Shown piece by piece: positions 5,781-52,089 of a stretch of DNA of 64,000 bases. The translations under genes were made by a program, and so were the position numbers. Each line of letters opens with the position of its first letter. Position 1 is the first letter of the stretch. Under the pieces are notes generated by a model that saw nothing but the letters and a program-made list of their open reading frames with translations, made no database searches and was not told the DNA's origin. Source of the DNA: a virus (taxonomy: Duplodnaviria > Heunggongvirae > Uroviricota > Caudoviricetes); IMG/VR virus record IMGVR_UViG_3300033066_001253, positions 77,223 through 141,222 of that record. One strand, 5' to 3'.

Positions 5781-6158
5781 ATGAAATCAAGTGAATTAAA
5801 AAAATTAATCAAAGACGCAGTTCAGGAAGCTATTAAAGATGAACTAAGGGATATATTATTAGAAGCAGTAAGAGCTAATAAAAACTCACCACCTCTAATG
5901 GAAAATCAACATATTAATTTTAGCCAACAAATCCCCAATCCAGGTTCTACTTCAAAAGCTCCATCAACTTTAATAGATCAAAGAAAAGCGTATGCTGATA
6001 TATTAAATTCTATGTCTAGAAATGGAGATACAATGAATTTTGATACTCAAGGAATGGGTTTATCTCATATTCCTTCTGATACTGTATCTGAAGGTTCATC
6101 ATTACCTGCAGGAGATGTTAGTTTAGATATGATAATGAATTTAACAGGAATTAAATAA
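5781..6158 (+). CDS. Hypothetical protein with N-terminal LKKLIK helix tag
   Basis: MKSSELKKLIKDAVQEAIKDELRDILLE. Confidence 0.65.
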   Translation: MKSSELKKLIKDAVQEAIKDELRDILLEAVRANKNSPPLMENQHINFSQQIPNPGSTSKAPSTLIDQRKAYADILNSMSRNGDTMNFDTQGMGLSHIPSDTVSEGSSLPAGDVSLDMIMNLTGIK

Positions 6159-6562
6159 TGGCAATAAACCCTCGTAAAATATATCCTATTGATACAAAAC
6201 CTAGTGTTGCTGTAGGTATATCTTTACCGTTAAATAAACCATCTGTTTTTGGATCGACATATTTAACAAAGGATGCTATAAAATATAATTTAATAAATTT
6301 CTTTTTAACTAATAAATATGAAAGATATTTAAATAATAATTTTGGAGCTAATTTACGAGCATTTATTTTTGAACAAATTACAAATGGAAATATTGATTTT
6401 TTAAAAGAAGATATACAAACTAAATTAAATCAAAATTTTTCCAATATAAATTTAATTAATCTATCAGTGAATCAATTTCCTGATAATAACGCTTTACAAG
6501 TTATAATGGAATATAATATTCCTAATACTAATATAGAAGATAAAATTGAAATAACATTCTAA
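6158..6562 (+). CDS. gp25: Baseplate wedge protein, gp25-like
   Basis: AIKYNLINFFLTNKYERYLNNNFGANLRAFIFE matches the gp25/GPW pattern (LLT..GER...P.FG..L...FE). Confidence 0.8.
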   Translation: MAINPRKIYPIDTKPSVAVGISLPLNKPSVFGSTYLTKDAIKYNLINFFLTNKYERYLNNNFGANLRAFIFEQITNGNIDFLKEDIQTKLNQNFSNINLINLSVNQFPDNNALQVIMEYNIPNTNIEDKIEITF

Positions 6563-8415
6563 TGGCTGATAAGAAGAATATTACTTACTTAAATAGAGAC
6601 TTTAATACATTTAAAAATGCATTAATAGACTTTACCAAAACTTATTATCCACAAACCTACACAGATTTTACCCCATCTTCACCAGGAATGATGTTTATGG
6701 AACAAGCATCAGTCGTTGGAGATATTTTATCATTTTATTTAGATAATCAGGTACAAGAAACATACGTTCAACATGCTAAACAAGATAATAACTTATTTGA
6801 GTTAGCTTATATGTTTAGTTATAAACCTAAAGTAACTTCTGCAGCATTTACAGATGTATCTATTTATCAATTAGTTCCTTCAATATTATCAGGTAGTAAT
6901 TATATTCCTGATTTCGATTATGCTCTTAGAATTGAAAAAAATGCAACCCTAACTTCTACATCAGTAGGAATACCTTCATTTATTACTCAAGATGAAGTAG
7001 ATTTTTCTATATCTAGTTCAGCAGATCCTACAGAAATAACAGTTTATCAATTATCAGGAAATAATCCCGTATATTATTTATTAAAAAAGAAAGTTAAAGC
7101 ATTTTCTACAACTATAAATTCAACAACTTCAACATTTGGAAGTCCTGAAAAATTCCCAACATTAGAAATAAGTGATAATAGAATAATGGGAATTTTAGAT
7201 ATTACAGATAGTGATGGAAATACATGGTATGAAGTAGATTATCTAGCTCAAGATACAGTTTATGATTCTGTAAAAAATACTAATCTAAATGATCCTAATC
7301 AGTTTGAAAATACTGATACTCCTTATTTATTAAAATTAAAACAAGTACAAAGACGATTTGTTTCAAGATTTTTAGATTCAACTACATTACAAATTCAATT
7401 TGGTGCAGGTACAACAAATAGTTCTGATGAAACAATAATCCCTAATACAGATAATGTGGGTTTAGGTTTACCATTTGGTCAAAATAAAATGACAACTGCT
7501 TATAGTCCATCTAATTTTGTTTTTACAAATACTTATGGTATTGCTCCTTCAAATACAACTTTAACAATAAGATATTTAACAGGAGGAGGAGCTTCAGCTA
7601 ATATACCTTCTAGTACTTTAAACCAAATTTCAGGAACTATTAAATTTCTTAAAAATAATTTAAATTCTGTTACTGCTCAAACAATATTTGATTCATTAGC
7701 AATTGAAAATGAATTTGCTGCTGATGGAGGAAGTGATGGTGATACTATAGAAGAATTAAGACAAAATATAATGTCTAATTATAACACTCAACAACGTTCG
7801 GTAACCCCTGATGATTATTTAATTAGATCTTTAAGTATGTCTCCTAGATTTGGAGCTGTAGCTAAAGCTTATATTGAGGCTACTAAAATACAAAATATTA
7901 ATTTGGGTGAAATTCCATCTATTCTTGATTTATACATTTTAACTTATAATAATAATAAACAATTAACTACATCATCTACTTCAATTAAACAAAATTTAGC
8001 AACTTATTTATCTCAATATAGAATAGTCGGAGATTCAATTAGAATTAGAGATGCATTTGTTATTAATATAGGAATTAACTTTGATATAATTGTTTTACCT
8101 GATTATAATAACAATGATGTTTTAAATAATTGTATTAAAGCTTTACAAGATTTTTTTAATATTGAAAAATGGCAAATAAATCAACCAATATTCTTAAGAG
8201 ATTTATATATACTTTTAGATAAAATAGAAGGAGTACAAACAGTGAAAAATATAGAAATTTACAACAAATCTGGAGTTTCAGATGGATATTCAAAATACGG
8301 ATATAGCATTCCTTCAGCTACTGTAAATAATGTAATTTATCCAAGTTTAGATCCAAGTATTTTTGAATGTAGATATTTAAACGAAGATATAAAAGGAAGA
8401 GTTTCTTCATTATAA
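6562..8415 (+). CDS. gp6: Baseplate wedge subunit, gp6-like
   Basis: YLNRDF...YTDF..SSPGMMFME...GDILSFYLD N-terminus; QIQFG.G; R.VTPDDY baseplate-J motif. Confidence 0.85.
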   Translation: MADKKNITYLNRDFNTFKNALIDFTKTYYPQTYTDFTPSSPGMMFMEQASVVGDILSFYLDNQVQETYVQHAKQDNNLFELAYMFSYKPKVTSAAFTDVSIYQLVPSILSGSNYIPDFDYALRIEKNATLTSTSVGIPSFITQDEVDFSISSSADPTEITVYQLSGNNPVYYLLKKKVKAFSTTINSTTSTFGSPEKFPTLEISDNRIMGILDITDSDGNTWYEVDYLAQDTVYDSVKNTNLNDPNQFENTDTPYLLKLKQVQRRFVSRFLDSTTLQIQFGAGTTNSSDETIIPNTDNVGLGLPFGQNKMTTAYSPSNFVFTNTYGIAPSNTTLTIRYLTGGGASANIPSSTLNQISGTIKFLKNNLNSVTAQTIFDSLAIENEFAADGGSDGDTIEELRQNIMSNYNTQQRSVTPDDYLIRSLSMSPRFGAVAKAYIEATKIQNINLGEIPSILDLYILTYNNNKQLTTSSTSIKQNLATYLSQYRIVGDSIRIRDAFVINIGINFDIIVLPDYNNNDVLNNCIKALQDFFNIEKWQINQPIFLRDLYILLDKIEGVQTVKNIEIYNKSGVSDGYSKYGYSIPSATVNNVIYPSLDPSIFECRYLNEDIKGRVSSL

Positions 8416-18730: not shown

Positions 18731-19519
18731 ATGGAAATGAAAAAATGTATAGGTTGTAATATAGTTTTAGAACAAACTGAAGCTAATTTTTATAAAAAAG
18801 GTAAAAAATATGAAGGTTTTCAAAGTAGATGTAAATTTTGTTTTAATAAACAAACTATATCAAATCAAAAAAATGAAGATTATAAAAAATATTTAAAAAA
18901 TTATTATAAGTTGAATAAAGAAAAAATTGATTTACAAAATAAAAATAATTATTATATAAATAAAGAAGATAGATCTAAAAAAGCAAAAGAAAAATACCAT
19001 AGTAATTCTGAATATTATTTGAATCTTCAAAAATCATATCAAGAACAAGTTAAAAATGATCCTGATAAATTAGAAAAACAAAGAGAAAGATTTAGAAAAT
19101 GGCATAAAGAAAATAGAAATAAAAATCCTCACCTCCATTTAATTAGAAATCAACTTAAGAATATTAAAGAATTATTAGGAACTAAAAAAACACAACCCGC
19201 ATTACTAGAATTAGGATATACTCCTGATGATTTTAAAAAACATATTGAAATATTATTTAAAGAAAATATGTATTGGGGTAATATAGGATTAGGTGAAGGT
19301 AAATGGAATATAGATCATAAAATACCTGTAACTTGGTTTAAACAAAAAACACCATTTTACTTAGTAAATAATTTAATGAATTTAGAACCAATTTGGTGGG
19401 TAGAAAATAATAAAAAAAGTAATAAATATTCCACTCCAATATGTTTAGAATATTTTAATTTAATAAAAGAATATATATTAGAAGACAAATTAAATTTAAT
19501 CATAATTAATGATAAATAA
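18731..19519 (+). CDS. HNH homing endonuclease
   Basis: N-terminal CxxC...CxxC; WNIDHKIP...NLEPIWWVENNKKSNK. Confidence 0.8.
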   Translation: MEMKKCIGCNIVLEQTEANFYKKGKKYEGFQSRCKFCFNKQTISNQKNEDYKKYLKNYYKLNKEKIDLQNKNNYYINKEDRSKKAKEKYHSNSEYYLNLQKSYQEQVKNDPDKLEKQRERFRKWHKENRNKNPHLHLIRNQLKNIKELLGTKKTQPALLELGYTPDDFKKHIEILFKENMYWGNIGLGEGKWNIDHKIPVTWFKQKTPFYLVNNLMNLEPIWWVENNKKSNKYSTPICLEYFNLIKEYILEDKLNLIIINDK

Positions 19520-19952
19520 ATTAAAATATATAATTAAAGAAGAAATTAGAAAACAATTGGATGAAATTTCTAAACCTGATGATAATACTTTAGAAAAAAT
19601 TTCTTTAGAAGTTAGAAATAAATATCCGAATATTAATAAAGGCTTATGTTTTAATTTTGCTAATATAATATATAATTTATTTGGATTTGATAATTTTGTT
19701 TTTCTTTATGATAAAGGAGAAGCATTTATTGGAGAACCACTACATATAGCTTTTAAATTAGGAGATAATAAATATTATGATGGTTATGGTATATTAACAA
19801 AACAACAACTTCAATATGAATGGCAAGGTCCTGAAGGATTACCTGATTTATATTCTGGAGATATAGAGGATTTAAAAGAATATGTTAAAATATTACCTGA
19901 AATAGATAAAGAAATTAAAAAAATAATACAAAATGTGGTTATACGAAAATAA
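19509..19952 (+). CDS. Tagged protein with putative papain/transglutaminase-like Cys-His-Asp domain
   Basis: NKGLCFNFA ... HIAFKLGDNKYYDGYG; N-terminal LKYIIKEEIRKQLDE. Confidence 0.45.
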   Translation: MINKLKYIIKEEIRKQLDEISKPDDNTLEKISLEVRNKYPNINKGLCFNFANIIYNLFGFDNFVFLYDKGEAFIGEPLHIAFKLGDNKYYDGYGILTKQQLQYEWQGPEGLPDLYSGDIEDLKEYVKILPEIDKEIKKIIQNVVIRK

Positions 19953-23694: not shown

Positions 23695-24438
23695 ATGATT
23701 AAACTTACTACTTTGCTATTAGAAACAATAAAAAAACCAAAATGTATATTCATTACTGGTCCTGCTGGTAGTGGTAAGTCCTACATAGCTGATAAAATAT
23801 TACCTAAATCATTTGAATTAATTAATATAGATAAATTCTATGAAGAATTACTTAAACAAAGTGGATTAGGGTTAGATCAAAAAGATTTTAATTTAACACA
23901 AAATTCAACAGCTGGTAAACTAATGGGTCAAGCTGTTACATTATCTAAATTAAAATTTATAGATTATTCTAAGTTAAGAGAAAATATAATAATAGATAGT
24001 ACTGGTGCCTCTTCAAAAACTTTATTACAAAAAAAACAATTTCTAGAAAATTTAGGTTACGAATGTATTATGTTAATGATATATGTATCACCTATAGTTG
24101 CATTAGAGCGTAATATACAACGAACTCGTAGTCTTATGCCGAGTATTATACTTAAAACTTGGTATGATGTAAATACGAATATAGACGTGTATAAACAAGA
24201 ATTTGGAGATAATTTTATATTATATAATAATGATCCAAAAGAATTACCTAGTAAAAATATCCTTACTTATTTTCAAGACTCTCAAGCAGAAAACACATTT
24301 AAAACTGAAGAAGATAAAGCTAAGCATATTGATAAAACCAATCAATTAATACAAAATATCACATCTTTACCTGATGTAAAACATGATTTTACTTCATTAG
24401 AACAAGTAAAAGATAAAATAAATAATTTCATAAAATGA
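23695..24438 (+). CDS. P-loop kinase (zeta-toxin/AAA_33-like)
   Basis: GPAGSGKS Walker A; NIDKFYE; IIIDSTGAS; ALERNIQR.R. Confidence 0.75.
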   Translation: MIKLTTLLLETIKKPKCIFITGPAGSGKSYIADKILPKSFELINIDKFYEELLKQSGLGLDQKDFNLTQNSTAGKLMGQAVTLSKLKFIDYSKLRENIIIDSTGASSKTLLQKKQFLENLGYECIMLMIYVSPIVALERNIQRTRSLMPSIILKTWYDVNTNIDVYKQEFGDNFILYNNDPKELPSKNILTYFQDSQAENTFKTEEDKAKHIDKTNQLIQNITSLPDVKHDFTSLEQVKDKINNFIK

Positions 24439-26128: not shown

Positions 26129-26646
26129 TGAGTAATATTTTTGAAAATGATGAAGAATCATCAATATCTAAGCAAAAAGCAAGTTATGATCTAGTAGTTA
26201 CACCAAAAGATAAAACTCCTGAAGACGTAGTTAAAGCATTAGATAATATTGATAATTATGGTCAATATGTTTCTAATATAAGAACAGATAAAGCAGGTTT
26301 ACAAAAAGCACTAGATGATCATTTTGGTCCTTCTTTACCTGTAAAAAAGAAAGCCTTAGAAAAACAAAGAGGAGAACCATTTCCTCCAAAAACAAAACAA
26401 GCAATAGACGATTTTATTCGTTCTAAAACATCTAAACCAGATATGCTTAAATATGTTATTCAAGATAATACATTAGTATTTCCTAAAAATTCAAACCCAA
26501 ATAAAGAATTAACTAAAGCTATTTTAAAAACAGTTTTAGGTAAAGCAAGAATTGAATATTCAGTTGATGAAAAAGAAAGTTTAGATGAAAATATATTTAA
26601 ACTTAAAAAATTAATTAAGGAAGAAGTTAAAAAAATATTAAAATAA
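26128..26646 (+). CDS. Hypothetical protein with C-terminal LKKLIKEEV tag
   Basis: Ends LDENIFKLKKLIKEEVKKILK. Confidence 0.65.
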   Translation: MSNIFENDEESSISKQKASYDLVVTPKDKTPEDVVKALDNIDNYGQYVSNIRTDKAGLQKALDDHFGPSLPVKKKALEKQRGEPFPPKTKQAIDDFIRSKTSKPDMLKYVIQDNTLVFPKNSNPNKELTKAILKTVLGKARIEYSVDEKESLDENIFKLKKLIKEEVKKILK

Positions 26647-27804: not shown

Positions 27805-28176
27805 ATGTCAGACAATTTTAATATACATAAATGGAATCGTGATAGATATATTAATGATCTTCAATTAGATGAAAATTATGAAAAAGCACTAGATATATTA
27901 GCTAAAAAAGCAGGTATTGAAGGTAGTAAAGGTAAAAATAAAATCAATTTACCTACCCAAGAATATAATGTTAGTTTTTGGTTAACTAAAGGTGGTGATA
28001 AAGAACCTATGGATTATGATGTTGAAGCTAAAAATGAGAAAGAAGCAATAGAATTAGCTAATTTACCATCTCATCATAAAATTTATAAACAAACCATAAC
28101 TGTTTTGAATAAAAAAACAAATGATGAGAGTAAATATAAATATGATCCAAGTAATTTAGAATATATAAAACTATAA
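27805..28176 (+). CDS. Hypothetical protein (start reassigned to 27805)
   Basis: ATG after the ATATTTATA at 27785; begins MSDNFNIHKW...LDE. Confidence 0.6.
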   Translation: MSDNFNIHKWNRDRYINDLQLDENYEKALDILAKKAGIEGSKGKNKINLPTQEYNVSFWLTKGGDKEPMDYDVEAKNEKEAIELANLPSHHKIYKQTITVLNKKTNDESKYKYDPSNLEYIKL

Positions 28177-28178
28177 AA

Positions 28179-28547
28179 ATGAAAAAAGAAGAATTAAAAT
28201 CAAAAATAAGAGAACAAATATTAACTAATCTTTCTGAAAAAAAGAAAAAAGATAATGTTGAAGAACCTGAAGTAGAAATTACTAAAGATACTGAAGAAGA
28301 AACATCAACAGAGACAGCACCTGCTAAAGATTTTGGAGTAGATCCAAAAATTCAAACATTACAAAATGCTCTTAAAGCTGCTTATGATGCTGCTAAAGAT
28401 ATGGGTGATGAAAAATTAGAAACTCAAATTGGTAATACTATTACTTATTTTACTAGAGCTCATATAGTAAAAAAAGATGAAGGTATTGCTGAAACTACTT
28501 TGAAAGAACAATTAAAAAAATTAATTAAACAAACCTTAAATAAATAA
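28179..28547 (+). CDS. Charged hypothetical protein with helix tags at both ends
   Basis: MKKEELKSKIREQILTNLSE ... LKEQLKKLIKQTLNK. Confidence 0.65.
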   Translation: MKKEELKSKIREQILTNLSEKKKKDNVEEPEVEITKDTEEETSTETAPAKDFGVDPKIQTLQNALKAAYDAAKDMGDEKLETQIGNTITYFTRAHIVKKDEGIAETTLKEQLKKLIKQTLNK

Positions 28548-30291: not shown

Positions 30292-30681
30292 ATGACTAAT
30301 ATCTTAGAAAATAAATTACGTACTATGATCAAACAAGAGGTACGTAATATATTAAACGAAGATAATTCATCTGTTATATATAAGATTGAAGGTAAATTAA
30401 TTACTGATACATCCAAAAACAATCAAAAAGATATATTATCAGATATACGTTCAATAGCTGGTATAACTATAGTAGGTACTAAAGAAACAGGAACCGAAAG
30501 AACAATAGTTAAAAATTCTAATTATACTACTATATTAACTATTAAAATAGATCCTCATCCCTTTATAGGTAAAGGTGGTTTTGGTAGAGAAGAAATAATT
30601 CAAACAATAAAAGATATAAAACGAATTAAGGGAGTTCGTAATTTTACTTTAACTAAATCCCCAATTAAAACAACTAACTAA
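30292..30681 (+). CDS. Hypothetical protein with helix tag
   Basis: MTNILENKLRTMIKQEVRNILNE; ATATTTATA 3 nt upstream. Confidence 0.65.
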   Translation: MTNILENKLRTMIKQEVRNILNEDNSSVIYKIEGKLITDTSKNNQKDILSDIRSIAGITIVGTKETGTERTIVKNSNYTTILTIKIDPHPFIGKGGFGREEIIQTIKDIKRIKGVRNFTLTKSPIKTTN

Positions 30682-30688: not shown

Positions 30689-31174
30689 ATGAAAATTACC
30701 GAAGTACGTCAATTAATTAAAGAATCAATTCAAGATTATATTCGTGAAATTGATAAAAAAGGAGATGAAGCAGCAGTAAAAGCCAAAATGGAAGCATGTT
30801 CTGAAGCTATCGAATCTCGTAAGAAAAAAATCGAAATGTCTGAATCATTAGAAGAAATGAAAGACATGGTAGATCCAGTTAAAATTAAGACATTAGGTGC
30901 TGAAATTAAACAATTGGAAAAAAGTTTAGCTAAATATACTAAGCAATTAGAAAAAATGACTGCTAAAAATGCTCCAAAATCTGAAGAAGTTGAAGAACAA
31001 GAAGTAGTAACTGAAGATGAACCAATTGATGAGGTTGATTTAGAAGTAAACGAAACTGAAGAAGTAGAAGAAACAATTGATGAGGTTGAAACTGAAATCG
31101 AAGAAACAGAAACTACTACTTTAAATGAATCTTATATCAGAATGCAAAAATTAGCAGGTCTTATAAAAGGATAA
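30689..31174 (+). CDS. Acidic coiled-coil protein (candidate prohead core/internal protein)
   Basis: MKITEVRQLIKESI...; ends LNESYIRMQKLAGLIKG, like the scaffold C-terminus. Confidence 0.6.
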   Translation: MKITEVRQLIKESIQDYIREIDKKGDEAAVKAKMEACSEAIESRKKKIEMSESLEEMKDMVDPVKIKTLGAEIKQLEKSLAKYTKQLEKMTAKNAPKSEEVEEQEVVTEDEPIDEVDLEVNETEEVEETIDEVETEIEETETTTLNESYIRMQKLAGLIKG

Positions 31175-37666: not shown

Positions 37667-38164
37667 ATGAGTAAAGACACATTAGTATCACAAGTTAAAC
37701 GAATCATGGAAAATGATGAGTTAAATGAAATGGCCCAATTAACAGGTGCCTTAGAAGCAGCAATTAAAGCAGTAATTGAAGCCAATCCAGATCTAGAAAA
37801 ATTAGCATTAAAAAAAGCAATTAAAGCAGATGCTGATGTTAAATCAGCTTTAGGTGATCAAGAATTATATGATAACCAATTAAACCGTTTCATTGATTTA
37901 GCTAAAGGAGACAGAGAATTAGGTCAACGTGGTCGTAAACCTGGTTCAGGCAATGCATCAGTAGGTAAATCAGCAGTAGATAAATTTACTCAAGGTTTAA
38001 CAGCTGAATATACTCCAGAAGAAAAATCATTTATTCAAGATATGTTTGCTTCTGTAACAGATGATGATGCTGATGTTCCTATGGAAGAAGCTGAAACAGT
38101 TGAATTAAGTGAGTCATTCAAACGTATGACTAAACTTGCAGGAGTTGGAGTTATTAAAGGATAA
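37667..38164 (+). CDS. Candidate internal head protein
   Basis: ELNEMA; ends LSESFKRMTKLAGVGVIKG. Confidence 0.6.
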   Translation: MSKDTLVSQVKRIMENDELNEMAQLTGALEAAIKAVIEANPDLEKLALKKAIKADADVKSALGDQELYDNQLNRFIDLAKGDRELGQRGRKPGSGNASVGKSAVDKFTQGLTAEYTPEEKSFIQDMFASVTDDDADVPMEEAETVELSESFKRMTKLAGVGVIKG

Positions 38165-38785: not shown

Positions 38786-39871
38786 ATGAAAACTACACAA
38801 CTTAAAGAAGCATTAAAATCTGAAATACGTAAAGTTTTAAAAGAAAATGAATATACAAATCTATTAGAAAATAACCAAAATATATGGAATAAAAATAAAA
38901 TTTTATCATTATTTTCTGATTTAGATTTTGATATTGAGGATGATTCTATAAAATATAAAATAAATCCCAAAGATAAAACAGAATTAATTATTAAATTTAT
39001 TGATGAGGACCCCGAAGATGTTCAGGAAAATTGTGAAACAATGGAAGAAGAATTTGGGGGAGATGATTATAATTTTAAATATAATAAATCCAATAATACT
39101 ATTTCTGTAATATTATCTGGGGGTGAAGATGATAATGAAGAAGATTTAGATGAAACTTTGGGAATTAATGAAATGGCCCGCATCGCTAAAACCATCAAAA
39201 TATCAGATTTAGATAAAGCTAAAGCAGTTATAGAAAAAGTTAAAGATACTAAGAAAAAATGGATAGCTGATATGATTCAAAAAGTTATTGATGCTGGAGA
39301 TGAAGGAATAGCTCAAGTAGCATTAGCTAAAGCTTTAGGTAAAGTAGATGAATTTGGAGATGGTCGTCAACAAGCAATTAACCCAGAAGTACGTTCGTTG
39401 TTAGGTGGTGATGTATTTACATTTGGAGCTGCTAAAATGGAAGATAAACCAGAAGTAACAGATGTTACTACAGATGATGAAGATGAAATTATCACATCAG
39501 TACCAGATGAAACAGAAGATGAAGAAGAAATAGATATTACAAATGATGATGTTGAAGATTCAGAAGATGAAGATGAAACTGATGCTGATAAATTTCTTAA
39601 ATCAGATGAAGAAGAAACTGAAGATGATGAAGAAGTAGCTAAAAAAGCAACTCCAAACAAACGTATTGGATCAAAAGCAGATCAATTAGATGCTGTTATT
39701 ACTGATATGAAAAAATTGGCAGCTGATTATAAAAAAGCTAAAACAGATGGAGATAAAGATAAAGAAAAAGAAATCGCTGATAAATTAAAAGAAAAAACTA
39801 AATTAAAAAAAGATTTAGAAAAAGATATTCAAATTAGTTTAGGTGATGAAACAGACGAAGATGAATTATAA
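38786..39871 (+). CDS. Highly acidic candidate internal head protein
   Basis: MKTTQLKEALKSEIRKVLKE; INEMA; D/E-rich tracts. Confidence 0.6.
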   Translation: MKTTQLKEALKSEIRKVLKENEYTNLLENNQNIWNKNKILSLFSDLDFDIEDDSIKYKINPKDKTELIIKFIDEDPEDVQENCETMEEEFGGDDYNFKYNKSNNTISVILSGGEDDNEEDLDETLGINEMARIAKTIKISDLDKAKAVIEKVKDTKKKWIADMIQKVIDAGDEGIAQVALAKALGKVDEFGDGRQQAINPEVRSLLGGDVFTFGAAKMEDKPEVTDVTTDDEDEIITSVPDETEDEEEIDITNDDVEDSEDEDETDADKFLKSDEEETEDDEEVAKKATPNKRIGSKADQLDAVITDMKKLAADYKKAKTDGDKDKEKEIADKLKEKTKLKKDLEKDIQISLGDETDEDEL

Positions 39872-42878: not shown

Positions 42879-44771
42879 ATGGCAGATACAAAACTATTTA
42901 TTAGATTAAAAAGATTATTTAGTACTGATGTAATCATACGAAATATAGGTGGAAATGAACTTAAGGTAATGGATGTAAATCAAATCCAAACTTCAGGAGA
43001 AATCCAAACCAATTCATTAGTTGATAGATTTCAACGTCTATATACTACATCACCTACATCACTATATGGTCAAAATAACAACCTGAATTTCCAGACTATT
43101 CGACCTCAATTATATTCAGAATATGATGCTATGGATAGTGATGCAATTATAGCATCTGCTTTAGATATATTAGCTGATGAGAGTACATTAAAAAATGATT
43201 TAGGGGAAGTACTTCAAATTAGAAGTAGTGATGAAAATATTCAAAAAATTCTTTATAATTTATTTTATGATGTAATGAATATAGAATTCAATCTATGGTC
43301 ATGGATTAGAAATATGTGTAAATATGGTGATTTTTTCTTAAAATTAGAAATTGCTGAAAAATATGGAGTTTACAATGTTATCCCTTATACAGCATATCAT
43401 ATTGATCGTCAAGAAGGATATGATATTGAAAACCCAATGGCTGTTAGATTTAGATTTAGTCCTGAAGGTATAGCAATGGATGGTTCATCTTACACTAGAT
43501 CAACTCAAGATACTAAAACAGCTATATTTTTTGATAATTATGAAATGGCTCATTTTAGATTATTAGCAGATACTAATTATTTACCTTATGGGAGATCATA
43601 TTTAGAACCAGCTCGTAAATTATTTAAACAATATGTTTTAATGGAAGATGCTATGTTAATTCATAGAATTGTCCGTGCCCCTGAAAAAAGAGTTTTTTAC
43701 ATTAATGTGGGTGGAATTGCATCTGCTGAAGTAGAAGGTTTTATGCAAAAAACCATCAATACCATGAAACGTACACCTTATATGGATCCTCAAACAGGTG
43801 AATATAATTTACGTTATAATATGATGAATATGATGGAGGATTTTTACATTCCGATGAGGGGTAATGATACTGCAACTAAAATTGATACAACAAAAGGTTT
43901 AGATTATTCTGGAATAGAAGATGTACAATATTTACGTGATAAATTATTTGCTGCTTTAAAAGTACCTAAAGCATTTATGGGTTATGAAAAAGATTTAACT
44001 GGTAAAGCAACATTAGCAGCAGAAGATATTAGATTTGCTCGTACAGTAGAACGTTTACAACGTATCATTATTTCAGAATTATATAAAATAGCATTAGTTC
44101 ATTTATATACTCAAGGTTTCAAAGATGAAAATTTAACTAATTTTACATTATCTTTAACAACACCTTCAATTATATATGATCAAGAAAAAATTGCATTATT
44201 GAAAGAAAAAGTATCATTAGCTAAGGATATAATGGAATCTAAATTATTACCTACAGATTGGATTTATGATAATGTATTCCATCTTAGTGATAATGAATTT
44301 GATGAACATAGAGATTTAATACGTGAAGATGCTAGACGTACATTCCGCTTAAACCAAATAGAAAACGAAGGTAACGACCCAGTAGAATCAGGTGAATCAT
44401 ATGGTACACCACATGATTTAGCTTCATTATATGGTAAAGGACGTATGGATTCTAATACAGATAATTTACCTGATGGATATAATGAAGATGTACCAAAAGG
44501 TAGACCTAAAAAACGAGTAACTAATATTAATACTCAAGATGATAATTTTGGTAAAGATCGTTTAGGTAAAATCGATATGAAAAAGGATGATCAATCTACT
44601 AAAGTAGATATTAATTTTAAAGGTGGTTCACCATTAGCATTGGAAAATACATCAAAAATTGAACAATTAAAAAATAAACAATTATTAGAAAATCTAATAG
44701 TTAAAAAGAAACTAGTATTTAACTCTACTAATGAATCATCATTGTTAGATGAAAATCAATTGAAGGACTAA
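42879..44771 (+). CDS. gp20: Portal protein (T4 gp20-like)
   Basis: LMEDAMLIHRIVRAPEKRVFYINVG, MEDFYIP, IEDVQYLRDKLFAALKVP. Confidence 0.95.
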   Translation: MADTKLFIRLKRLFSTDVIIRNIGGNELKVMDVNQIQTSGEIQTNSLVDRFQRLYTTSPTSLYGQNNNLNFQTIRPQLYSEYDAMDSDAIIASALDILADESTLKNDLGEVLQIRSSDENIQKILYNLFYDVMNIEFNLWSWIRNMCKYGDFFLKLEIAEKYGVYNVIPYTAYHIDRQEGYDIENPMAVRFRFSPEGIAMDGSSYTRSTQDTKTAIFFDNYEMAHFRLLADTNYLPYGRSYLEPARKLFKQYVLMEDAMLIHRIVRAPEKRVFYINVGGIASAEVEGFMQKTINTMKRTPYMDPQTGEYNLRYNMMNMMEDFYIPMRGNDTATKIDTTKGLDYSGIEDVQYLRDKLFAALKVPKAFMGYEKDLTGKATLAAEDIRFARTVERLQRIIISELYKIALVHLYTQGFKDENLTNFTLSLTTPSIIYDQEKIALLKEKVSLAKDIMESKLLPTDWIYDNVFHLSDNEFDEHRDLIREDARRTFRLNQIENEGNDPVESGESYGTPHDLASLYGKGRMDSNTDNLPDGYNEDVPKGRPKKRVTNINTQDDNFGKDRLGKIDMKKDDQSTKVDINFKGGSPLALENTSKIEQLKNKQLLENLIVKKKLVFNSTNESSLLDENQLKD

Positions 44772-44805: not shown

Positions 44806-45660
44806 ATGAAGATAACCCACAACAAATTTAAGAATTCTGGTATATTATTTGAATTACTTGTATCACAAATAACATCAGATACACTAAATGCTAAGGAATC
44901 ACCTGCAGTTGATATATTACGTAAACATTTTACTAAAAGTGAATTAAGTAAAGAATATAAATTATATGAAACTTTACTAAAGAATAAAAGATTAACTGAA
45001 GGTAAAGCAGATATTATATTAAATACTGTACTTGAAGCATCTAAAAAATTAAACAGAACTGCTTTAAGAAAAGAAAAATATAATTTAATTAAAGAAATTA
45101 AAAATCATTATAATTTAGAAGAATTTTTCAAAACTAAATTACCTAATTATAAAGCACAAGCTGCTTTTTATAATTTAATGGAAATAGCAAATAGTGGAGT
45201 TAATAATACTGATGCTGTAATTAATAATAAAATTACTATATTAGAACATCTTACTTCAAAACCAGTAACTGAAGAGGTAAAAGATAAACTATTAGAAGAA
45301 TTTTCAAGTTTTGATAAAGGTACTAGAATGTTAGTATCTAGAACATTATTAGATAAATTCAATGAAAAATATAGTTCATTTAATCCACAACAAAAGTTAA
45401 TTCTTAAAGAATATATTAATTCAGTAGATAATACTTCTAAATTACGTGATTTTTATAATTTACAACTAGTTGAAATTAAATCAAATTTAACTAAAGTAAA
45501 TAAAAAAGTTAAAGACGAAGTAACTAAAATTAAGGTTAATGAAATCGTTACGTTAATAAATGAAGTAGATAAAACATATAAAGTAAAAAACGAAGATATT
45601 ATTAACTTACTTCAATATTGTGAGCTTTTAAATGAATTAGAAAAAATCAATTTAAACTAA
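44806..45660 (+). CDS. Head-module hypothetical protein
   Basis: 284 aa, helical; KFKNSGILFELL; directly after the portal. Confidence 0.65.
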   Translation: MKITHNKFKNSGILFELLVSQITSDTLNAKESPAVDILRKHFTKSELSKEYKLYETLLKNKRLTEGKADIILNTVLEASKKLNRTALRKEKYNLIKEIKNHYNLEEFFKTKLPNYKAQAAFYNLMEIANSGVNNTDAVINNKITILEHLTSKPVTEEVKDKLLEEFSSFDKGTRMLVSRTLLDKFNEKYSSFNPQQKLILKEYINSVDNTSKLRDFYNLQLVEIKSNLTKVNKKVKDEVTKIKVNEIVTLINEVDKTYKVKNEDIINLLQYCELLNELEKINLN

Positions 45661-46355
45661 TGGAAGATTTCGATTACATAAAATATTTAAAGAATAATCC
45701 TTTATTAAATGAATCAGAACAAGGAACTAAAGATGATGTTGAATTACATAAAATAATAGGTAATTCAATTCCATTTGCTGATTTATTATGGGCTGTAAAA
45801 GAAGATTGGGGTAAAGGAGATTTATATTTTGAATTAGAAGAAGCTATATTTGATAAAGATGCTGATAGAATAAAATCAATTCTTCAAAATTATGATGTTT
45901 GGGATGATTATAAACATATGTTAAACCTAAACGAATCAGAAGATGAAGATTGGGTTGATATTGAACAAGGTGGAGAAGAAGATATAGATAATTTAAATAT
46001 GAAATATCAACGTGTTCTTCCAAATAAAAAAATACTTATCCAGGTAATGAAAGATTCTGGACGAGGTTCAGATTTATATCATACTTTATTAGCATATTTT
46101 TCTAAATTAAATCATGTAAAAGGATATGATTCAGATATGTCTAAAATAAAAGACATTCTTAAAAAATATGAGGTTTGGGATAAATATAGTCATTTCTTTA
46201 ATATGAATGAAGATAGAATTAAATCTCTTATTAAAAAAACCTTAGACGAAATGTCAGTTACTGGTGGAGGTGGAGCAGGAGCTGGATTTGAACCTGGTAT
46301 TGGAATGAATTATGCTACTCCTAAAGCATTTAAGAAAGTTAAAAAGAAAAAATAA
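45660..46355 (+). CDS. Head-module protein with internal duplication
   Basis: Two copies of IK.IL..Y.VWD.Y.H..N.NE; several LxE sites. Confidence 0.6.
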   Translation: MEDFDYIKYLKNNPLLNESEQGTKDDVELHKIIGNSIPFADLLWAVKEDWGKGDLYFELEEAIFDKDADRIKSILQNYDVWDDYKHMLNLNESEDEDWVDIEQGGEEDIDNLNMKYQRVLPNKKILIQVMKDSGRGSDLYHTLLAYFSKLNHVKGYDSDMSKIKDILKKYEVWDKYSHFFNMNEDRIKSLIKKTLDEMSVTGGGGAGAGFEPGIGMNYATPKAFKKVKKKK

Positions 46356-46367: not shown

Positions 46368-46613
46368 ATGAAATCAACTGAATTAAGAAGATTAAAAATT
46401 AAACTAGCAAATCTCCAAACAGAAATTCAATATTTAATTGATAAAGGTGAAAATGAGCCTGGTTTAATAGATGCTATAGCTTCGGATATTGCTGATTTTA
46501 CTGATGAAGTAACTAAAATCAGAAAAGAAATAGCTGGTATTAAAGATAAAAAAATTCAAAAAGAATCAATTAGTTTAGTTAAAATTTACGAAGAAATAAA
46601 AAAGAAAAAATAA
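46368..46613 (+). CDS. Small coiled-coil protein
   Basis: 81 aa; ATATTTATA 4 nt upstream. Confidence 0.6.
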   Translation: MKSTELRRLKIKLANLQTEIQYLIDKGENEPGLIDAIASDIADFTDEVTKIRKEIAGIKDKKIQKESISLVKIYEEIKKKK

Positions 46614-47893
46614 TGGCAAGTTTACAAGAACAATATAACCTTATTAAAGAAGGTAAATCAACAGCTAAAGATGTATTTTTAAAACATGCTAAAGCTTTAT
46701 TTCCTCAATATATTCCTAATCACTTCGATTTTGAATTAACTACTAAAATATTAAAAACTAAATCAATTATAACTGAAGGTTATGTTGATTTAACTCCTTC
46801 ACATAATATTCAGGCTACTCCTAAACAACCATATGAGTTAGCATTTGAAAAATTCTTACAAGAAGCTAAGAAAAAAGAAGCAGAAGAGAAAAAAATTAAA
46901 GCTGATCTTAAAAAAACAGATAAATCAGTAGAAGATATTCAAGATAAAGACTATGATCAAAAAGATACTAAATCAATTGATAATGTAATCTTTGATCAAT
47001 TACAACGTGGTGTTTATACTGAAATGAGTAAAGATCCTGATCAAGATCTTAAAAAAGTAAAAGAAAAAGTATTAAAAAATCTTACTAAAGATCCAATTTA
47101 TTATACTAAAAACAGTGCTTTTGGACTTGAAATAGAAGGATATACAGATAAATTACCAGGTGCTAATCCATCTAAAACAGATAAAATGGAACCTGTTTCA
47201 AAAGAAAAAACTAAATCTAATGTACAAGATTCATTAGGTAAAAAAGAAGCAGCTTCTAAAGGTAAACCTAAATTAGTTAAAGATGAGATGACTCAAACAT
47301 CTAAAACTGCTAGAGGTATTAAAAAAATGGATATGCCTGGTAAAGAAAAAGTTATTAAGTTGAAGGAGGGGATGGGATTAGCTGATTTATTAGGAGAAGA
47401 AGAAGTTGAAGAAATTAAAGTTAATGATCCAAAAAATACTTTATTTAATTTTTGGAAAAAAGGAGAAATTGAAGTTGGTAATGAAACAGCTAATGTAGAG
47501 TCACCTGAAGAATTACAAGGAGAAACCAAAGATACTTTTAATCGTTTTGTTGATTTAGTTAATAATTATCCTAAAATTGATAAAGAAGATTTGGCAGTTC
47601 TTAATTCTATAGGATTATTTGGAGGGACAGAAACATTTTATAATAGTTATGAATGGAATAACTTAAAAGAAAAAGATTTCATTAAAATCATGATGCATGA
47701 ATATGGTTATGAAAGAGAAGATGTAGATGAAGATTATGAAAATTTAGATGAAACTCTAGAAGAAGGCCCACTCGAAGACGCAGACGCTAAATTAGCAAAA
47801 GATCAAGCAGCCAAAGAAGCAGAAGCAGCAGCAATTGAAAAACAAAGAGCTGATAATAAACTAAAAATAGCAAACGCTAATAAAAACGTTTAA
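46613..47893 (+). CDS. Charged candidate prohead core/internal protein
   Basis: K/E/D-rich, many (I/L)xE sites; sits just before the protease. Confidence 0.55.
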   Translation: MASLQEQYNLIKEGKSTAKDVFLKHAKALFPQYIPNHFDFELTTKILKTKSIITEGYVDLTPSHNIQATPKQPYELAFEKFLQEAKKKEAEEKKIKADLKKTDKSVEDIQDKDYDQKDTKSIDNVIFDQLQRGVYTEMSKDPDQDLKKVKEKVLKNLTKDPIYYTKNSAFGLEIEGYTDKLPGANPSKTDKMEPVSKEKTKSNVQDSLGKKEAASKGKPKLVKDEMTQTSKTARGIKKMDMPGKEKVIKLKEGMGLADLLGEEEVEEIKVNDPKNTLFNFWKKGEIEVGNETANVESPEELQGETKDTFNRFVDLVNNYPKIDKEDLAVLNSIGLFGGTETFYNSYEWNNLKEKDFIKIMMHEYGYEREDVDEDYENLDETLEEGPLEDADAKLAKDQAAKEAEAAAIEKQRADNKLKIANANKNV

Positions 47894-47894: not shown

Positions 47895-48503
47895 ATGAGA
47901 GAAATATTAATTGAAACAATACCATTGACTCTATCTCTTCAGAATATTCATGAGTCTATGAGGAGAGGAGGTAATTTAGTTGTTGAAACTTTATTAGCTA
48001 CTAGTGAAAAAACTAACGGAAATCAAAGATTTTACCCTAGAGAATTATGGGAAAGAGAAATAGATAAATATAATCAAGAATTTATAAATAATAGAACAAG
48101 TACAGGAGAGTTGGATCATCCTGATAGTTCTATAATTAATTTAAAAAATGTATCACATCTCATTACCAAAACATGGTGGGATGGAGATAAAATATATGGT
48201 AAATTAGAAATCTTACCTACCCCATCTGGAAATATAGCTAAAACATTAATTGAAAGTGGAGTCACATTAGGAATATCTAGCAGAGGTATGGGTTCACTTA
48301 AACAAGTAGGTGATGTAATGGAAGTACAAGGAGATTTTAGTCTTCTTTGTTGGGATTTAGTTAGTACTCCATCAAATCCAGGCTCATTTTTAAAAACAGG
48401 TAATTTAAATGAATCATTAAATAATAATATTAACCCTTATACCAAAATTAATGGGATAATAACAGATATTCTTTGTTCACAAGGTCAATGTCCAATATGG
48501 TAG
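47895..48503 (+). CDS. gp21: Prohead protease (T4 gp21-like)
   Basis: NGNQRFYP, GELDHP, LGISSRGMGS, WDLVSTPS. Confidence 0.95.
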   Translation: MREILIETIPLTLSLQNIHESMRRGGNLVVETLLATSEKTNGNQRFYPRELWEREIDKYNQEFINNRTSTGELDHPDSSIINLKNVSHLITKTWWDGDKIYGKLEILPTPSGNIAKTLIESGVTLGISSRGMGSLKQVGDVMEVQGDFSLLCWDLVSTPSNPGSFLKTGNLNESLNNNINPYTKINGIITDILCSQGQCPIW

Positions 48504-49406: not shown

Positions 49407-50411
49407 ATGAAAAACACAAACAGAGACCTCTTTGCTGAGGCAATCGCTGATGCTACCGCTGTTAAAAAAATGGCAATAGCAAATGCAAAAGCTGCTTTGG
49501 AAGAATCTTTTACTCCTCACCTAACACAAATGTTATCAGCTAAACTACAAGAAATGGAATCTGAAGAAGAAACCGTGGATGAAGTTGAAGATGTAACAGA
49601 AGTTGAAGTGAGCGAAACAGAAGATGTTACTGAAACAGAAACAACAGTAGATGAAGAAATGGATTTAGACGAACTTTTAGCTGAATTAGAATCAGAAGAA
49701 GTAGAAGAATCTATTGATTTAAATGAAGTTGAAGACGAAACTGAAGAATCAGAAGATGAAACTGAAACTGAAGATGCTGAAGAAGCCGAAACAGAAGAAG
49801 ATGAACCTTTAAATTTAGAAGATATGTCTGAAGATGATTTAAAAGCAGTAATCGAAGACGTTATTAAAGACATGGTAGCAGCGGGTGATATAGAAGCTGG
49901 ACATGAAGGTATGGAAGACGAAACTGAAACTGAGGTTGAAGTTAACGATGAAGATGAAGTAAGTATAGATGAAATTTTAGCTGAAATTGAAGCAATTGAT
50001 GAAGCTAAAAAGAAAAAAACAGTAGTTAAAAAAGACGAAGATAAAGAAAAACTGAAAAAAGAGCTTAAAGAAGCTAAAGAAGCAGTTGATTCATTAAGTC
50101 ATGATTTAAACGAAGTTAATCTATTAAATGCTAAATTGCTTTATGTTAATAAAATCTTCAAATCTAAAAATTTGAATGAAAACCAAAAAGTAAAAGTAAT
50201 CACGTCCTTTGATAAAGCTAAAACAGTAAAAGAAACCAAATTGGTTTACGAAACTATTTTAGAAAGTTTAAAAGAGAAAAAAGTATCTCCAATTAATGAA
50301 TCAAGAGGTTTCGCTTCTAAAGCAACCGGAAATTCAACAAAAGGAACTACTCCAATCTTAGAATCAAATGAAATGGTAAATCGTTTCAAAGTATTAGCAG
50401 GAATTAAATAA
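49407..50411 (+). CDS. Prohead scaffold/core protein (T4 gp22-like)
   Basis: Very acidic coiled coil between protease and MCP; EVNLLNAKLLYVNKIF; C-terminal NRFKVLAGIK. Confidence 0.85.
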   Translation: MKNTNRDLFAEAIADATAVKKMAIANAKAALEESFTPHLTQMLSAKLQEMESEEETVDEVEDVTEVEVSETEDVTETETTVDEEMDLDELLAELESEEVEESIDLNEVEDETEESEDETETEDAEEAETEEDEPLNLEDMSEDDLKAVIEDVIKDMVAAGDIEAGHEGMEDETETEVEVNDEDEVSIDEILAEIEAIDEAKKKKTVVKKDEDKEKLKKELKEAKEAVDSLSHDLNEVNLLNAKLLYVNKIFKSKNLNENQKVKVITSFDKAKTVKETKLVYETILESLKEKKVSPINESRGFASKATGNSTKGTTPILESNEMVNRFKVLAGIK

Positions 50412-50445
50412 AAACAAACAATTAAAAACAATTTAAAAAACAAAA

Positions 50446-52089
50446 ATGAGTACAATCAATTCATTATTAGAAAGTGCCAACCCATATAAGTCATTGCAAA
50501 ATGATGCTGCTAGATTAGCAGGAAAATGGGTTAAAACAGGCCTATTGGAAGGTATGAGTACCGAAACCGATAAAAACAACATGTCAATGATTCTTGAGAA
50601 TCAGGCAAAACAATTAGTAGTTGAATCATCTCAAACAGGTGCAGGAACAGCAGGAGCTGCTTTTACAACTGGAGTAGGTGAACAATGGGCTGGTGTAGCT
50701 TTACCATTAGTACGTAAAGTATTTGGACAAATTGCAGCGAAAGAATTCGTTTCAGTTCAACCAATGAATTTACCTTCTGGTCTAATTTTCTACCTAGATT
50801 TCCAATATGGTACAACTAATTCTCCATTTGCTGCAGCTGGTGCTTCTGGTTTCTATGGAACTGAGTCATTATATGGTAACACAAATCCAGGTGCTACAAC
50901 AGCTGCAAATGGTGGTTTATATGGTGCAGGTCGTTTTAGTTATACTATTAACAACACTTCATCTATTGTAACTGCTACAGTAGCAACAGCTTCTTGGGCT
51001 AACTTTAATTTCGATTCTAATTATTCAGCTTCTGCTGCTTCATTACAATGGAAAACTTTAGCTGTAACTTTAGATGCTAAAGCAGATTTCAACGGATCTC
51101 GTGCATTTACATTAGTATCTCAATCAGCTCTTGGTTTAAATGCTGCTGATATCCAAGCTGCTTATACAACTTTCGCTGGAACTACTGTTACTTTCTTAGT
51201 TACTGGTTCTAAAGTAGGTCAAGTTGCAACTTTAGCTAACGTAACAGCTTCATTCCAATTACAACCAACTGATCAATTACGTGGTGATTTTGAAGATGGA
51301 AACACTTCATTAAACAGTTTAAACAACCCAATCGCTATCCCTGAAATCAACATTAAGTTGAAATCTGAAGCAATCGTTGCTAAAACACGTAAGTTGAAAG
51401 CTGTTTGGACTCCTGAGTTCTCTCAAGATTTAAATGCTTACCATGCTTTAGATGCTGAAGCTGAATTAACTTCTATTATGTCTGAATATATCTCTTTAGA
51501 GATTGACTTAGAAATTATGGATATGTTGATCGCAAACGCTTCTGCAGTTACTGAATATTGGTCAGCAGTTAATAACCAAGCATTGGATTCAACAGGTATC
51601 ACAAATAGTAACTTAGGTTTCTATAACACTCAAGGTGGTTGGTATCAAACATTAGGTACTAAGATTAACAAAGTATCTAATATTATTCACCAAAAAACAC
51701 TTCGTGGTGGTGCTACTTTCTTAGTATGTTCTCCTACAGTAGCAACAATCCTAGAATCAATCCCAGGATTTGCAGCTGATAATAGTGCAGAAGCTACTAA
51801 AATGAAGTATGCATTTGGTGTACAAAAAGTAGGTCAAATGAATGGACGTTACCAAGTATACAAAAATCCATACATGACTGAAAACACAATCCTATTAGGA
51901 TTCCGTGGATCTCAATTCTTGGAAACAGGTGCTGTATTTGCTCCATATGTTCCATTAATCATGACTCCATTAGTTTATGATCCAGATACATTCACTCCAC
52001 GTAAAGGTTTATTGACTCGTTACGCGAAGAAAATGGTAAGGTCAGAATTTTATGGAAAGATTTATGTAAGCGGTTTAAATACTCTTTAA
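50446..52089 (+). CDS. gp23: Major capsid protein (T4 gp23-like)
   Basis: VSVQPMNLPSGLIFYLD, AKTRKLKAVWTPEFSQDLNAYH, EIDLEI, YAPY-like FAPYVPL, GLLTRYA. Confidence 0.97.
   Translation: MSTINSLLESANPYKSLQNDAARLAGKWVKTGLLEGMSTETDKNNMSMILENQAKQLVVESSQTGAGTAGAAFTTGVGEQWAGVALPLVRKVFGQIAAKEFVSVQPMNLPSGLIFYLDFQYGTTNSPFAAAGASGFYGTESLYGNTNPGATTAANGGLYGAGRFSYTINNTSSIVTATVATASWANFNFDSNYSASAASLQWKTLAVTLDAKADFNGSRAFTLVSQSALGLNAADIQAAYTTFAGTTVTFLVTGSKVGQVATLANVTASFQLQPTDQLRGDFEDGNTSLNSLNNPIAIPEINIKLKSEAIVAKTRKLKAVWTPEFSQDLNAYHALDAEAELTSIMSEYISLEIDLEIMDMLIANASAVTEYWSAVNNQALDSTGITNSNLGFYNTQGGWYQTLGTKINKVSNIIHQKTLRGGATFLVCSPTVATILESIPGFAADNSAEATKMKYAFGVQKVGQMNGRYQVYKNPYMTENTILLGFRGSQFLETGAVFAPYVPLIMTPLVYDPDTFTPRKGLLTRYAKKMVRSEFYGKIYVSGLNTL

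Follow-up and report, generated by a model that had tools for sequence, protein, structure and literature searches.

Introduction

How does a phage mark the proteins that are to be enclosed in its head, and can such marks be recognized in its genome? The question is raised here by the window, a stretch of 64,000 nucleotides from a tailed phage (IMG/VR virus record IMGVR_UViG_3300033066_001253; bases 77223-141222 of a 147.9-kb contig; ~26% GC) which forms the structural half of a T4-like genome and carries nearly all of its genes on the + strand. A sequence-only reading of positions 5781-52089 had proposed that many accessory proteins share short helical tags and prohead-protease sites at their termini, and that such a modular tag-plus-payload system packages 15 or more proteins. 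In this study, we followed up this proposal computationally. The sequences it quoted are all present at the gene starts and ends concerned, and every computational test run agrees with a modular system of tags and bodies that would be tied to head assembly and a gp21-type protease. Four predicted tag classes are distinguished: a helical leader, a MxNFDLKKYL leader, a MIKLxxLLxE leader and the C-terminal tail of the scaffold protein, RMQKLAGII. By analogy with T4, they are quite likely to be removable propeptides that direct proteins to the prohead in the manner of the T4 capsid targeting sequence (CTS).

The principle of capsid targeting propeptides is known from T4, where the CTS of the internal proteins was reportedly described by Mullaney and Black in 1996. 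The prohead protease gp21 removes the CTS of IPI, IPII and IPIII and the propeptides of Alt (PMC9026906, PMC3012670). It cuts after L/I-X-E; in IPIII the CTS is the first 10 residues, Alt has propeptides at both ends, gp21 itself carries the site LIE-9, and gp22, gp67 and gp68 are cut up and their fragments lost from the head (PMC9026906). The T4 facts on which the proposal had drawn agree with this source.

Genes are named here by their start coordinates in the window, L-numbers (e.g. L075, L102) denote related IMG/VR loci or contigs, and an arrow follows the Glu of a candidate cutting site. The closest cultured relative is Flavobacterium phage vB_FspM_immuto (hereafter immuto; 60% identity of the major capsid protein, MCP), followed by Microcystis phage Mel-JY01 (50%) and Rhodothermus phage RM378 (38%). 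Immuto grows on Flavobacterium sp. LMO8. A protein encoded elsewhere in the genome has a C-terminus that looks like a type IX secretion sorting domain, which fits a Bacteroidota host.

A recurrent helical leader

Termini of 25-28 residues from all proteins of the genome were compared all-against-all with no motif assumed. Pairs scoring at least 40 numbered 10 among the N-termini and 7 among the C-termini, against one among internal segments and one among shuffled N-termini. The dominant N-terminal cluster comprises 5781, 19509, 28179, 28729, 30292, 30689, 38786 and a gene 2.2 kb upstream of the window, and the C-terminus of 26128 falls into this same cluster. The consensus spans 20 residues, MKKSELKQIIKEEIxKVLxE. 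To avoid circularity, an independent hidden Markov model (HMM) was trained solely on leaders from other IMG/VR contigs. It gave seven matches of at least 5 bits in the genome against a mean of 0.25 per shuffled proteome (n=20), so that a recurring helical tag, far above chance, was confirmed genome-wide. The best match is the C-terminus of 26128; the upstream gene scores 9.4 bits, 5781 reaches 4.7 bits, and the other scores are given in Table 1, with 30689 also below 5 bits. Membership as first proposed holds for the seven window genes of the cluster and for the C-terminus of 26128, while the helix of 29965 found no independent support. The N-terminal helix proposed for 28179 stood, and its C-terminal copy proved weak. 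The helical copy of 45660 is real, although it lies inside the protein rather than at the C-terminus.

The same leader heads five genes of immuto. In 80 IMG/VR loci around related MCP genes (identity 61-99%), a strict 15-residue motif fell within the first 12 residues in 17 of 18 occurrences, and shuffles gave 0.06 N-terminal matches. A back-translated scan of IMG/VR with the pattern MKK-x6-I[KR]EE-x4-L-x-E, which itself fixes L18 and E20, returned at least 120 stretches, with the 18-nucleotide gap in every match listed; a control with wrong gaps of 9-15 nucleotides returned 13. Among the matches listed, positions that the pattern leaves free are also conserved (Ser4 in 66/79 and Leu6 in 76/79, the latter with four synonymous codons), the conserved Leu, Ile and Ser each use several synonymous codons, the amino-acid entropy stays near 0 and then exceeds 3 bits immediately after Glu20, and the DNA upstream of the leader start is not conserved in register. 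The varied codons, the entropy jump and the unconserved upstream DNA together argue for selection on the protein and for a tag unit that ends at Glu20.

These data bear directly on the view that the likeness is not a protein signal at all and arises from Lys/Glu/Leu-rich composition, from A-rich 5′ coding ends or from a mobile cassette of a promoter plus first codons. A genome of 26% GC in which MKK starts are common makes such an origin worth considering. However, shuffled controls contain 20- to 280-fold fewer matches, codon usage and upstream DNA behave as just described with conservation ending exactly at Glu20, and the tag is also found at C-termini and inside proteins. The composition or DNA-cassette explanation is refuted, and we attach virtually no probability to it.

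Other searches were less informative. Short tblastn searches with leaders of 27-30 residues against cultured phage records gave no match, the queries being too short for the size of the database, and a search for homologues of the leader region returned 118 candidates, a figure which does not gauge breadth. In Mel-JY01 the scaffold tail is kept and the leader-like starts are weaker. The idea that the leader mimics a scaffold helix was dropped, as the internal scaffold segment concerned (DLKAVIEDVIKDMV) obtained no score in the leader HMM.

Three further tag classes

The second class has the consensus MxNFDL[KR]K[YF]Lx[EN]xKL and starts 45660 and 27805. The DF(D/N) leader that had been pointed out on these two genes is real and widespread, with at least 120 stretches in an IMG/VR scan and, among the matches listed, up to four such genes in a row. 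The genome has one more copy, its third, at the start of a paralogue of 45660 that lies 44.6 kb upstream of the window. On one IMG/VR contig (L075:13-1970), four consecutive small genes all start with M(D/E/N)NFDLKKYLAEGKLLKE, a layout like that of the T4 internal-protein locus.

The third class, MIKLxxLLxE, has only 10 residues and is N-terminal in 17 of its 19 occurrences in 2118 open reading frames (ORFs). Three short leaders had originally been listed; that of 23695 belongs to this recurrent class, and those of 24435 and 26128 found no support. A homologue of 23695 in L171 keeps the MIKL-type start (MGMIKLLSLLKE↓I).

The fourth class had been overlooked by the sequence-only reading, and the system is richer for it. 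The C-terminus of the scaffold, ..PI(V/M)E↓SxxMVxR(F/M)(Q/K)KLAG(I/L)I, is near-invariant in ~73 scaffolds, and tails of this type also end 30689 and 37667. In the fetched loci it occurs on 39 non-scaffold proteins (23 C-terminal, 13 N-terminal and 3 internal), often on the same protein as a leader of class 1, 2 or 3. Candidate tails on 5781 (MIMNLTGIK) and 28553 (ELKKLAGEF) were rejected as too weak, and the immuto orthologue of 5781 has none. A tentative description of 28553 as a histone-like protein was also dropped, as Pfam gave no support.

Candidate cutting sites and the prohead protease

A hydrophobic-x-Glu site lies between tag and body in every arrangement class, with 28729 and three immuto leaders as the single-leader exceptions. 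The site of the helical leader is L-x-E at residues 18-20. Of 91 unique second-class leaders among the matches listed, 50 have their first [LIM]xE at residue 17 or 18, and 12 have it at residue 24. Where the scaffold-type tag is N-terminal, I-x-E follows in 13/13 cases (background 0.23); where it is C-terminal, [ILVM]xE stands within the 14 residues ahead in 88/96 (background 0.52). The C-terminal helical tag of 26128 has LDE directly ahead of it.

A protease of matching type is encoded by 47895, which scores 99.9 bits for Peptidase_S77 (cut-off 27). The His and Ser of T4 positions 85 and 140, which we take to be the proposed catalytic pair of gp21, are conserved in it. Its N-terminus, MREILIE↓T (LIE-7), aligns with the T4 sequence QLLIE↓T (LIE-9). 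In the MCP, QLVVE↓SSQTG aligns with the maturation sites of T4 gp23 (LTE↓AEIGG) and gp24 (LRE↓STTTN), and L57 and E60 are invariant in 45 sequences of relatives. The (I/L)xE motifs that had been noted in the MCP, scaffold, protease and portal are present; their counts are not clearly above the expectation from composition and therefore carry little weight, and it is the aligned positions in MCP and protease that are informative.

Exchange of tags between bodies

Behind the helical leader stand at least 15 unrelated families of bodies, and Pfam and PHROGs gave no family for any of them. Between the window phage and immuto the tags are conserved and most tagged proteins are not; among relatives, homologous bodies carry different leaders, and tags are also combined on one protein. 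The domain of 30292 illustrates this well. It stands behind a helical leader in the window and in L113, behind a MIK leader in L127, and at the end of proteins of 437-1059 residues in L136, L164 and L167. The Glu just ahead of it, E23 of 30292, is invariant in the family alignment in all these arrangements, including those where 330-950 residues of other protein precede it. An AlphaFold model of 30292 shows a free helix at residues 3-23, a linker at 23-26 with pLDDT <50, which coincides with the LNE↓D site, and then a compact ferredoxin-like domain.

Similar exchanges are found for other members. A homologue of 28179 in L102 stands behind a second-class leader and an extra domain, and the body of 28729 is homologous to a domain of an 841-residue immuto protein and to leader-bearing proteins in L102, L137 and L167. 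The leader of 37667 is degenerate, and its homologue in L121 begins with a canonical copy (MKKSYLLGIIREEIHNVFSE↓M); the immuto gene syntenic to 5781 begins MKLDLLKKLIKEAVKEAVREELTVILSE↓D. The leader of 30689 belongs to a family variant, (L/V)RxxIRESIxEYxxE↓ID, that is found in L136, L164 and L167. The homologue of 26128 is untagged in L167, and in L124 it continues in frame into a leader-bearing body.

The payloads had been thought to include enzymes, and here the outcome was mixed; many bodies are not enzymes but small domains or coiled coils that resemble the scaffold. The "papain-like" enzyme is at most a lead, which points to 19509. Its body appears YunG-like by protein-language features (0.96), NlpC/P60-like and transglutaminase-like look-alikes align with it from residue 20, and a homologue search among 5.8 billion proteins returned only 19509 itself. 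The zeta-like kinase stood, with 23695 matching zeta-toxin/AAA_33-like families in Pfam. For the proposed fusion of HAD and zincin domains (24435; 24435-25649), the domains were confirmed, namely an NT5C-type HAD domain and a zinc-metallopeptidase-like domain, together with a DUF5661 domain; its parts match three separate immuto proteins, and the DUF5661 part shares 44% identity with an immuto protein that bears the helical leader. A DUF5661-like stretch is also present in the head-module protein 46613.

By these comparisons, about 12-14 members can be counted as robust in the whole genome: 5781, 19509, 23695, 26128, 27805, 28179, 28729, 30292, 30689, 37667, 38786 and 45660 in the window, and two more outside it. 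The original figure of 15 or more is reached only with the weak candidates 29965, 46368 and 24435.

Link to the head module

Gene order in the head module (portal, protease, scaffold, MCP) is the same as in T4. Where T4 has genes 67/68 for the core proteins gp67 and gp68, relatives have, between portal and protease, a conserved gene that starts with the helical leader. In 14 IMG/VR loci, a gene between portal and protease starts M..KLKELVKKTLQE↓MSMTGGG. The immuto counterpart is a 73-residue protein, MKKSQIVKAVQEVLEE↓MSTTGAVGG, which corresponds to the last third of 45660 in the window, where it stands behind a second-class leader and a duplicated domain. The internal tag of 45660 thus has its homologue at the N-terminus of what in relatives is a head-module protein of its own. 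The 81-residue gene 46368 has a weak leader-like start that was not picked up by the independent HMM.

A unit of the 30689 type (leader, coiled coil, scaffold tail) is fused to the C-terminus of a 46613-type head-module protein in several relatives, where it sits behind an internal leader-like helix that ends LKE↓ID. In sequence and composition, 30689, 38786 and 28179 resemble the scaffold; the 38786 body is scaffold-like and acidic and lies in a variable slot upstream of the large terminase gene (TerL). Observations of this kind, and the departure of gp22, gp67 and gp68 fragments from the T4 head (PMC9026906), would also suit a system in which the tags are assembly helices of accessory proteins of the prohead core; such proteins would build or size the core and then be degraded and expelled, with nothing kept or delivered. 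We consider this main alternative unlikely, as many bodies are compact and globular or enzyme-like and unrelated to scaffolds (YunG/NlpC-P60-like, zeta-like kinase, ferredoxin-like) and as the bodies vary greatly between close relatives, which is the pattern of T4 internal proteins and not of core building blocks. A complex prediction of the MCP (45-row alignment) with the last 55 residues of the scaffold scored 0.00 against a mark of 0.32, with the fold of the partner uncertain, and speaks neither for nor against binding.

Genomic distribution and a late-promoter-like motif

Judged by sequence, the helical leader is confined to this clade of T4-like phages: of 80 leader loci (again among the matches listed, as for all IMG/VR loci in this section), 72 hold homologues of proteins of this genome. 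The commonest are the AAA_28 ATPase 38226 (32/80) and the 441-residue Rossmann-like protein 36274 (31/80), followed by TerL and portal, and most leader genes lie in a variable slot made up of the AAA_28 gene, tagged genes and TerL.

Neighbours of this kind, and the location of some tagged genes outside the structural modules, could mean that the tags address a different destination, such as a hub protein (the AAA_28 ATPase or its 441-residue neighbour) or a phage chaperonin, or that they are degradation signals that time removal. This seems quite improbable to us. Most of the genome's tagged genes (5781, 19509, 23695, 27805-30689 and 45660) do not adjoin 38226 or 36274, leaders are found on head-module proteins and in combination with the scaffold's own tail, and the site between tag and body fits the specificity of the head protease.

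Twenty-four + strand genes are preceded, at a distance of 11-40 nucleotides, by the motif ATATTTATAA, and 22 of these genes belong to the structural half. Of its 50 + strand copies, 24 fall in that upstream zone, which makes up 7% of the sequence (binomial p ~1e-14). Sites include 5769-5776, 23683-23690, 30281-30288, 38757-38764, 44780-44787, 46356-46363, 56851-56858 and 60802-60809. The motif precedes the sheath, head-completion, baseplate-hub and tape-measure genes and also seven tagged genes, namely 5781 (at a distance of 12 nucleotides), 23695, 27805, 30292, 38786, 46368 and the distant second-class gene. In IMG/VR, the core motif occurs no more than 50 nucleotides upstream of 33/81 leader genes against 85/781 other ORFs in the same loci (odds ratio 5.6, p ~1e-10). 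From its placement, ATATTTATAA probably serves this phage group as its late promoter. The late promoter of T4, TATAAATA, has a different sequence and was tried and set aside: its 55 copies exceed the 34 expected, but most of the excess comes from the reverse of the actual upstream motif TATTTATA.

Proposed mechanism and points against it

If the tags are removable propeptides for the prohead, as proposed above, tagged proteins would be made late in infection together with the structural proteins. The tag would bind the scaffold core, or, for class 4, the target of the scaffold tail itself, probably the inner face of the capsid shell, and the tagged protein would be enclosed when the shell closes. 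The gp21-type serine protease would then cut after the Glu of the hydrophobic-x-Glu site and free the body inside the head, with internally tagged proteins cut into two bodies like a small polyprotein. Scaffold-like bodies would probably be degraded or expelled, and other bodies (the YunG/NlpC-P60-like domain, the zeta-like kinase and the small ferredoxin-like domains) would remain with the DNA, perhaps to enter the host on ejection. A wider proposal, to which we would give slightly less than an even chance, is that in this abundant aquatic clade four interchangeable, protease-removable tags make up a combinatorial code by which many fast-changing proteins are loaded into the head. One tag would be a copy of the scaffold's own shell-binding tail, and some of the cargo would be carried as polyproteins.

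Several observations weigh against targeting by removable propeptides. Hydrophobic-x-Glu is common in this Lys/Glu/Leu/Ile-rich proteome, and in 28729 and three of the five immuto leaders the canonical position is not a Glu. On 26128, the C-terminal tag could be what is left of a fusion with a lost downstream gene and not a working signal. The leaders bear no demonstrable likeness to the 10-residue T4 CTS beyond an MK start and a hydrophobic-x-Glu end, in a comparison in which the T4 internal-protein genes were not aligned, and the helical leader, with 20 residues, has double the length. In IMG/VR, leader genes most often have the AAA_28 ATPase and the 441-residue protein as neighbours, an adjacency that may be plain synteny or may reflect a functional link. 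Some tagged genes lie among replication genes: 19509 is beside the primase gene, and in immuto one second-class gene is flanked by those for the polymerase and SSB. Lastly, packaging, cleavage and ejection of tagged proteins are argued from analogy; we found no proteomic, structural or genetic data for this phage or its relatives, and no paper that describes these leaders.

Comparison with known systems and significance

The proposed system shares with the T4 CTS a short N-terminal tag that ends in hydrophobic-x-Glu and is carried by unrelated, fast-evolving proteins. It also shares a protease of the S77 gp21 family, tags at both ends of one protein (as in Alt), variable gene slots and other T4-like head genes. 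It differs from T4 in having four or more tag classes side by side, which are swapped and include the scaffold's own C-terminal tail, in that internal tags give a polyprotein-like arrangement, and in that function is here a prediction. A helix-turn-helix at the C-terminus of the P22 scaffolding protein is the coat-binding segment, and encapsulins use cargo-loading peptides. As in those systems, a short conserved terminal peptide, common to shell organiser and cargo, would dock on the inner shell; unlike them, the putative RMQKLAGII tail is flanked by a protease site, can also be N-terminal and is known here from sequence alone. In the giant phages phiKZ and SPN3US, many head-internal proteins are processed after Glu by a gp21-related prohead protease (PMC5694885, PMC10052503). 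The site motifs differ there, and a small set of interchangeable terminal tags is not known from these two phages. What is new here is the scaffold-tail tag, the rule that a site lies between tag and body, the swapping of tags on homologous bodies, the internal tags and the promoter link.

Head-carried, injected proteins are known for very few phages and are the first weapons against host defences. If the proposal holds, the tags would mark packaged and injected proteins in genomes and metagenomes of a large group of aquatic phages with Flavobacteria-type hosts, and under the wider proposal sequence alone would reveal which proteins thousands of uncultured phages package and inject. T4-like capsid targeting would then be far more varied than the single T4 sequence suggests, with some tags imitating the scaffold tail and some proteins tagged at both ends, and ready-made tags would be at hand for loading foreign proteins into Bacteroidota phages. 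The idea is directly testable in the cultured phage immuto.

Features of the window and other observations

The coordinates of the tags and of the head module are collected in Table 1. Pfam and PHROG searches with 49407 gave no match to gp22 or any other family; the gene was assigned as the putative scaffold gene from its place directly upstream of the MCP gene, its acidic coiled-coil make-up and its ends, which are conserved in ~70 relatives.

Table 1. Predicted tags and head-module features of the window (HMM, score with the independent leader profile; MCP, major capsid protein).
Feature	Position	Strand	Remark
5781, double-length helical leader	5781..5864	+	MKSSELKKLIKDAVQEAIKDELRDILLE↓A; upstream of baseplate genes
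19509, helical leader	19509..19565	+	MINKLKYIIKEEIRKQLDE↓I; HMM 11.6 bits
23695, short leader	23695..23724	+	MIKLTTLLLE↓T; zeta-toxin/AAA_33-like kinase by Pfam
26128, C-terminal helical copy	26587..26643	+	..SLDE↓NIFKLKKLIKEEVKKILK, then stop; best HMM score, 13.4 bits
27805, second-class leader	27805..27873	+	MSDNFNIHKWNRDRYINDLQLDE↓N; late-promoter-like motif upstream
28179, helical leader	28179..28238	+	MKKEELKSKIREQILTNLSE↓K; HMM 7.7 bits
28179, weak C-terminal helical copy	28485..28544	+	IAE↓TTLKE↓QLKKLIKQTLNK, then stop; score 35 with 26128; HMM 1.8 bits; uncertain
28729, helical leader	28729..28797	+	MKKKELKDLIKKLTTDIINNTEE; HMM 5.3 bits; without canonical L-x-E
30292, helical leader	30292..30360	+	..KLRTMIKQEVRNILNE↓D; HMM 7.4 bits
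30689, helical leader	30689..30748	+	MKITEVRQLIKESIQDYIRE↓I; HMM 2.2 bits; in N-terminal cluster
30689, scaffold-type C-terminal tail	31118..31171	+	TLNE↓SYIRMQKLAGLIKG, then stop
37667, degenerate helical leader	37667..37729	+	MSKDTLVSQVKRIMENDELNE↓M
37667, scaffold-type C-terminal tail	38099..38161	+	VELSE↓SFKRMTKLAGVGVIKG, then stop
38786, helical leader	38786..38845	+	MKTTQLKEALKSEIRKVLKE↓N; HMM 7.2 bits; late-promoter-like motif upstream
45660, second-class leader	45660..45713	+	MEDFDYIKYLKNNPLLNE↓S
45660, internal helical tag	46206..46250	+	NEDRIKSLIKKTLDE↓MSVTGGGG; residues 187-197 of 231
46368, weak leader-like start	46368..46424	+	MKSTELRRLKIKLANLQTE↓I; 81-residue gene; T4 gene 67 position; late-promoter-like motif upstream
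Large terminase (TerL)	starts 41250		T4-type head module
Portal protein, T4 gp20 type	42879..44771	+	Pfam Portal_T4, 3e-68
All-helical 284-residue head-module protein	44806..45660	+	Conserved; 75 homologues beside portals
Genes without assigned family between portal and protease	44806, 45660, 46368, 46613	+	
Conserved head-module protein upstream of protease	46613..47893	+	
Prohead serine protease, T4 gp21 type	47895..48503	+	Peptidase_S77, 1.8e-28
HNH-type endonuclease paralogue, inserted	starts 48473		Between protease and scaffold genes
Putative scaffold protein	49407..50411	+	Gene position, acidic coiled coil, conserved tail
Scaffold C-terminal tail	50355-50408	+	ILE↓SNEMVNRFKVLAGIK, then stop; near-invariant in ~73 scaffolds of relatives
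MCP, gp23 type	50446..52089	+	Pfam Gp23, 5e-78
Predicted MCP propeptide, residues 1-60	50446-50625	+	Ends QLVVE↓SSQTG

The MCP propeptide contains an invariant segment, ..DAARLAGKW.., that resembles the core of the scaffold tail, KLAGI; the likeness may be due to chance or may hint that the two segments pair or compete. The 44806 protein has a model with pLDDT 82 and is weakly similar to 29265. The model has no structural match in the PDB, and a description as "papain-like" was rejected for this all-helical protein. Directly after the MCP gene, 52222-53139 matches the amidinotransferase/dimethylarginine dimethylaminohydrolase fold family (PF19420, 5.5e-9) and has a late-promoter-like motif upstream, an enzyme type that is unusual inside a structural module.

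The inserted endonuclease gene is one of four paralogous endonuclease-like genes (18731-19519, 21333-21992, 48473-49216 and 62635-63294; identity 25-39%), all with Cys-rich N-termini and a common C-terminal end, ..FKTTEIA..GNRNK. Genes of the GIY-YIG type are 19933 (SegE-like) and 40595 (with NUMOD domains). A pyrimidine dimer glycosylase of the T4 endonuclease V type is encoded at 35786-36148 (PF03013, 6e-13), and 31753-32181 matches the podophage GP4 fibre protein family Gp80 (PF23140, 7.5e-22) within what is otherwise a myophage structural region.

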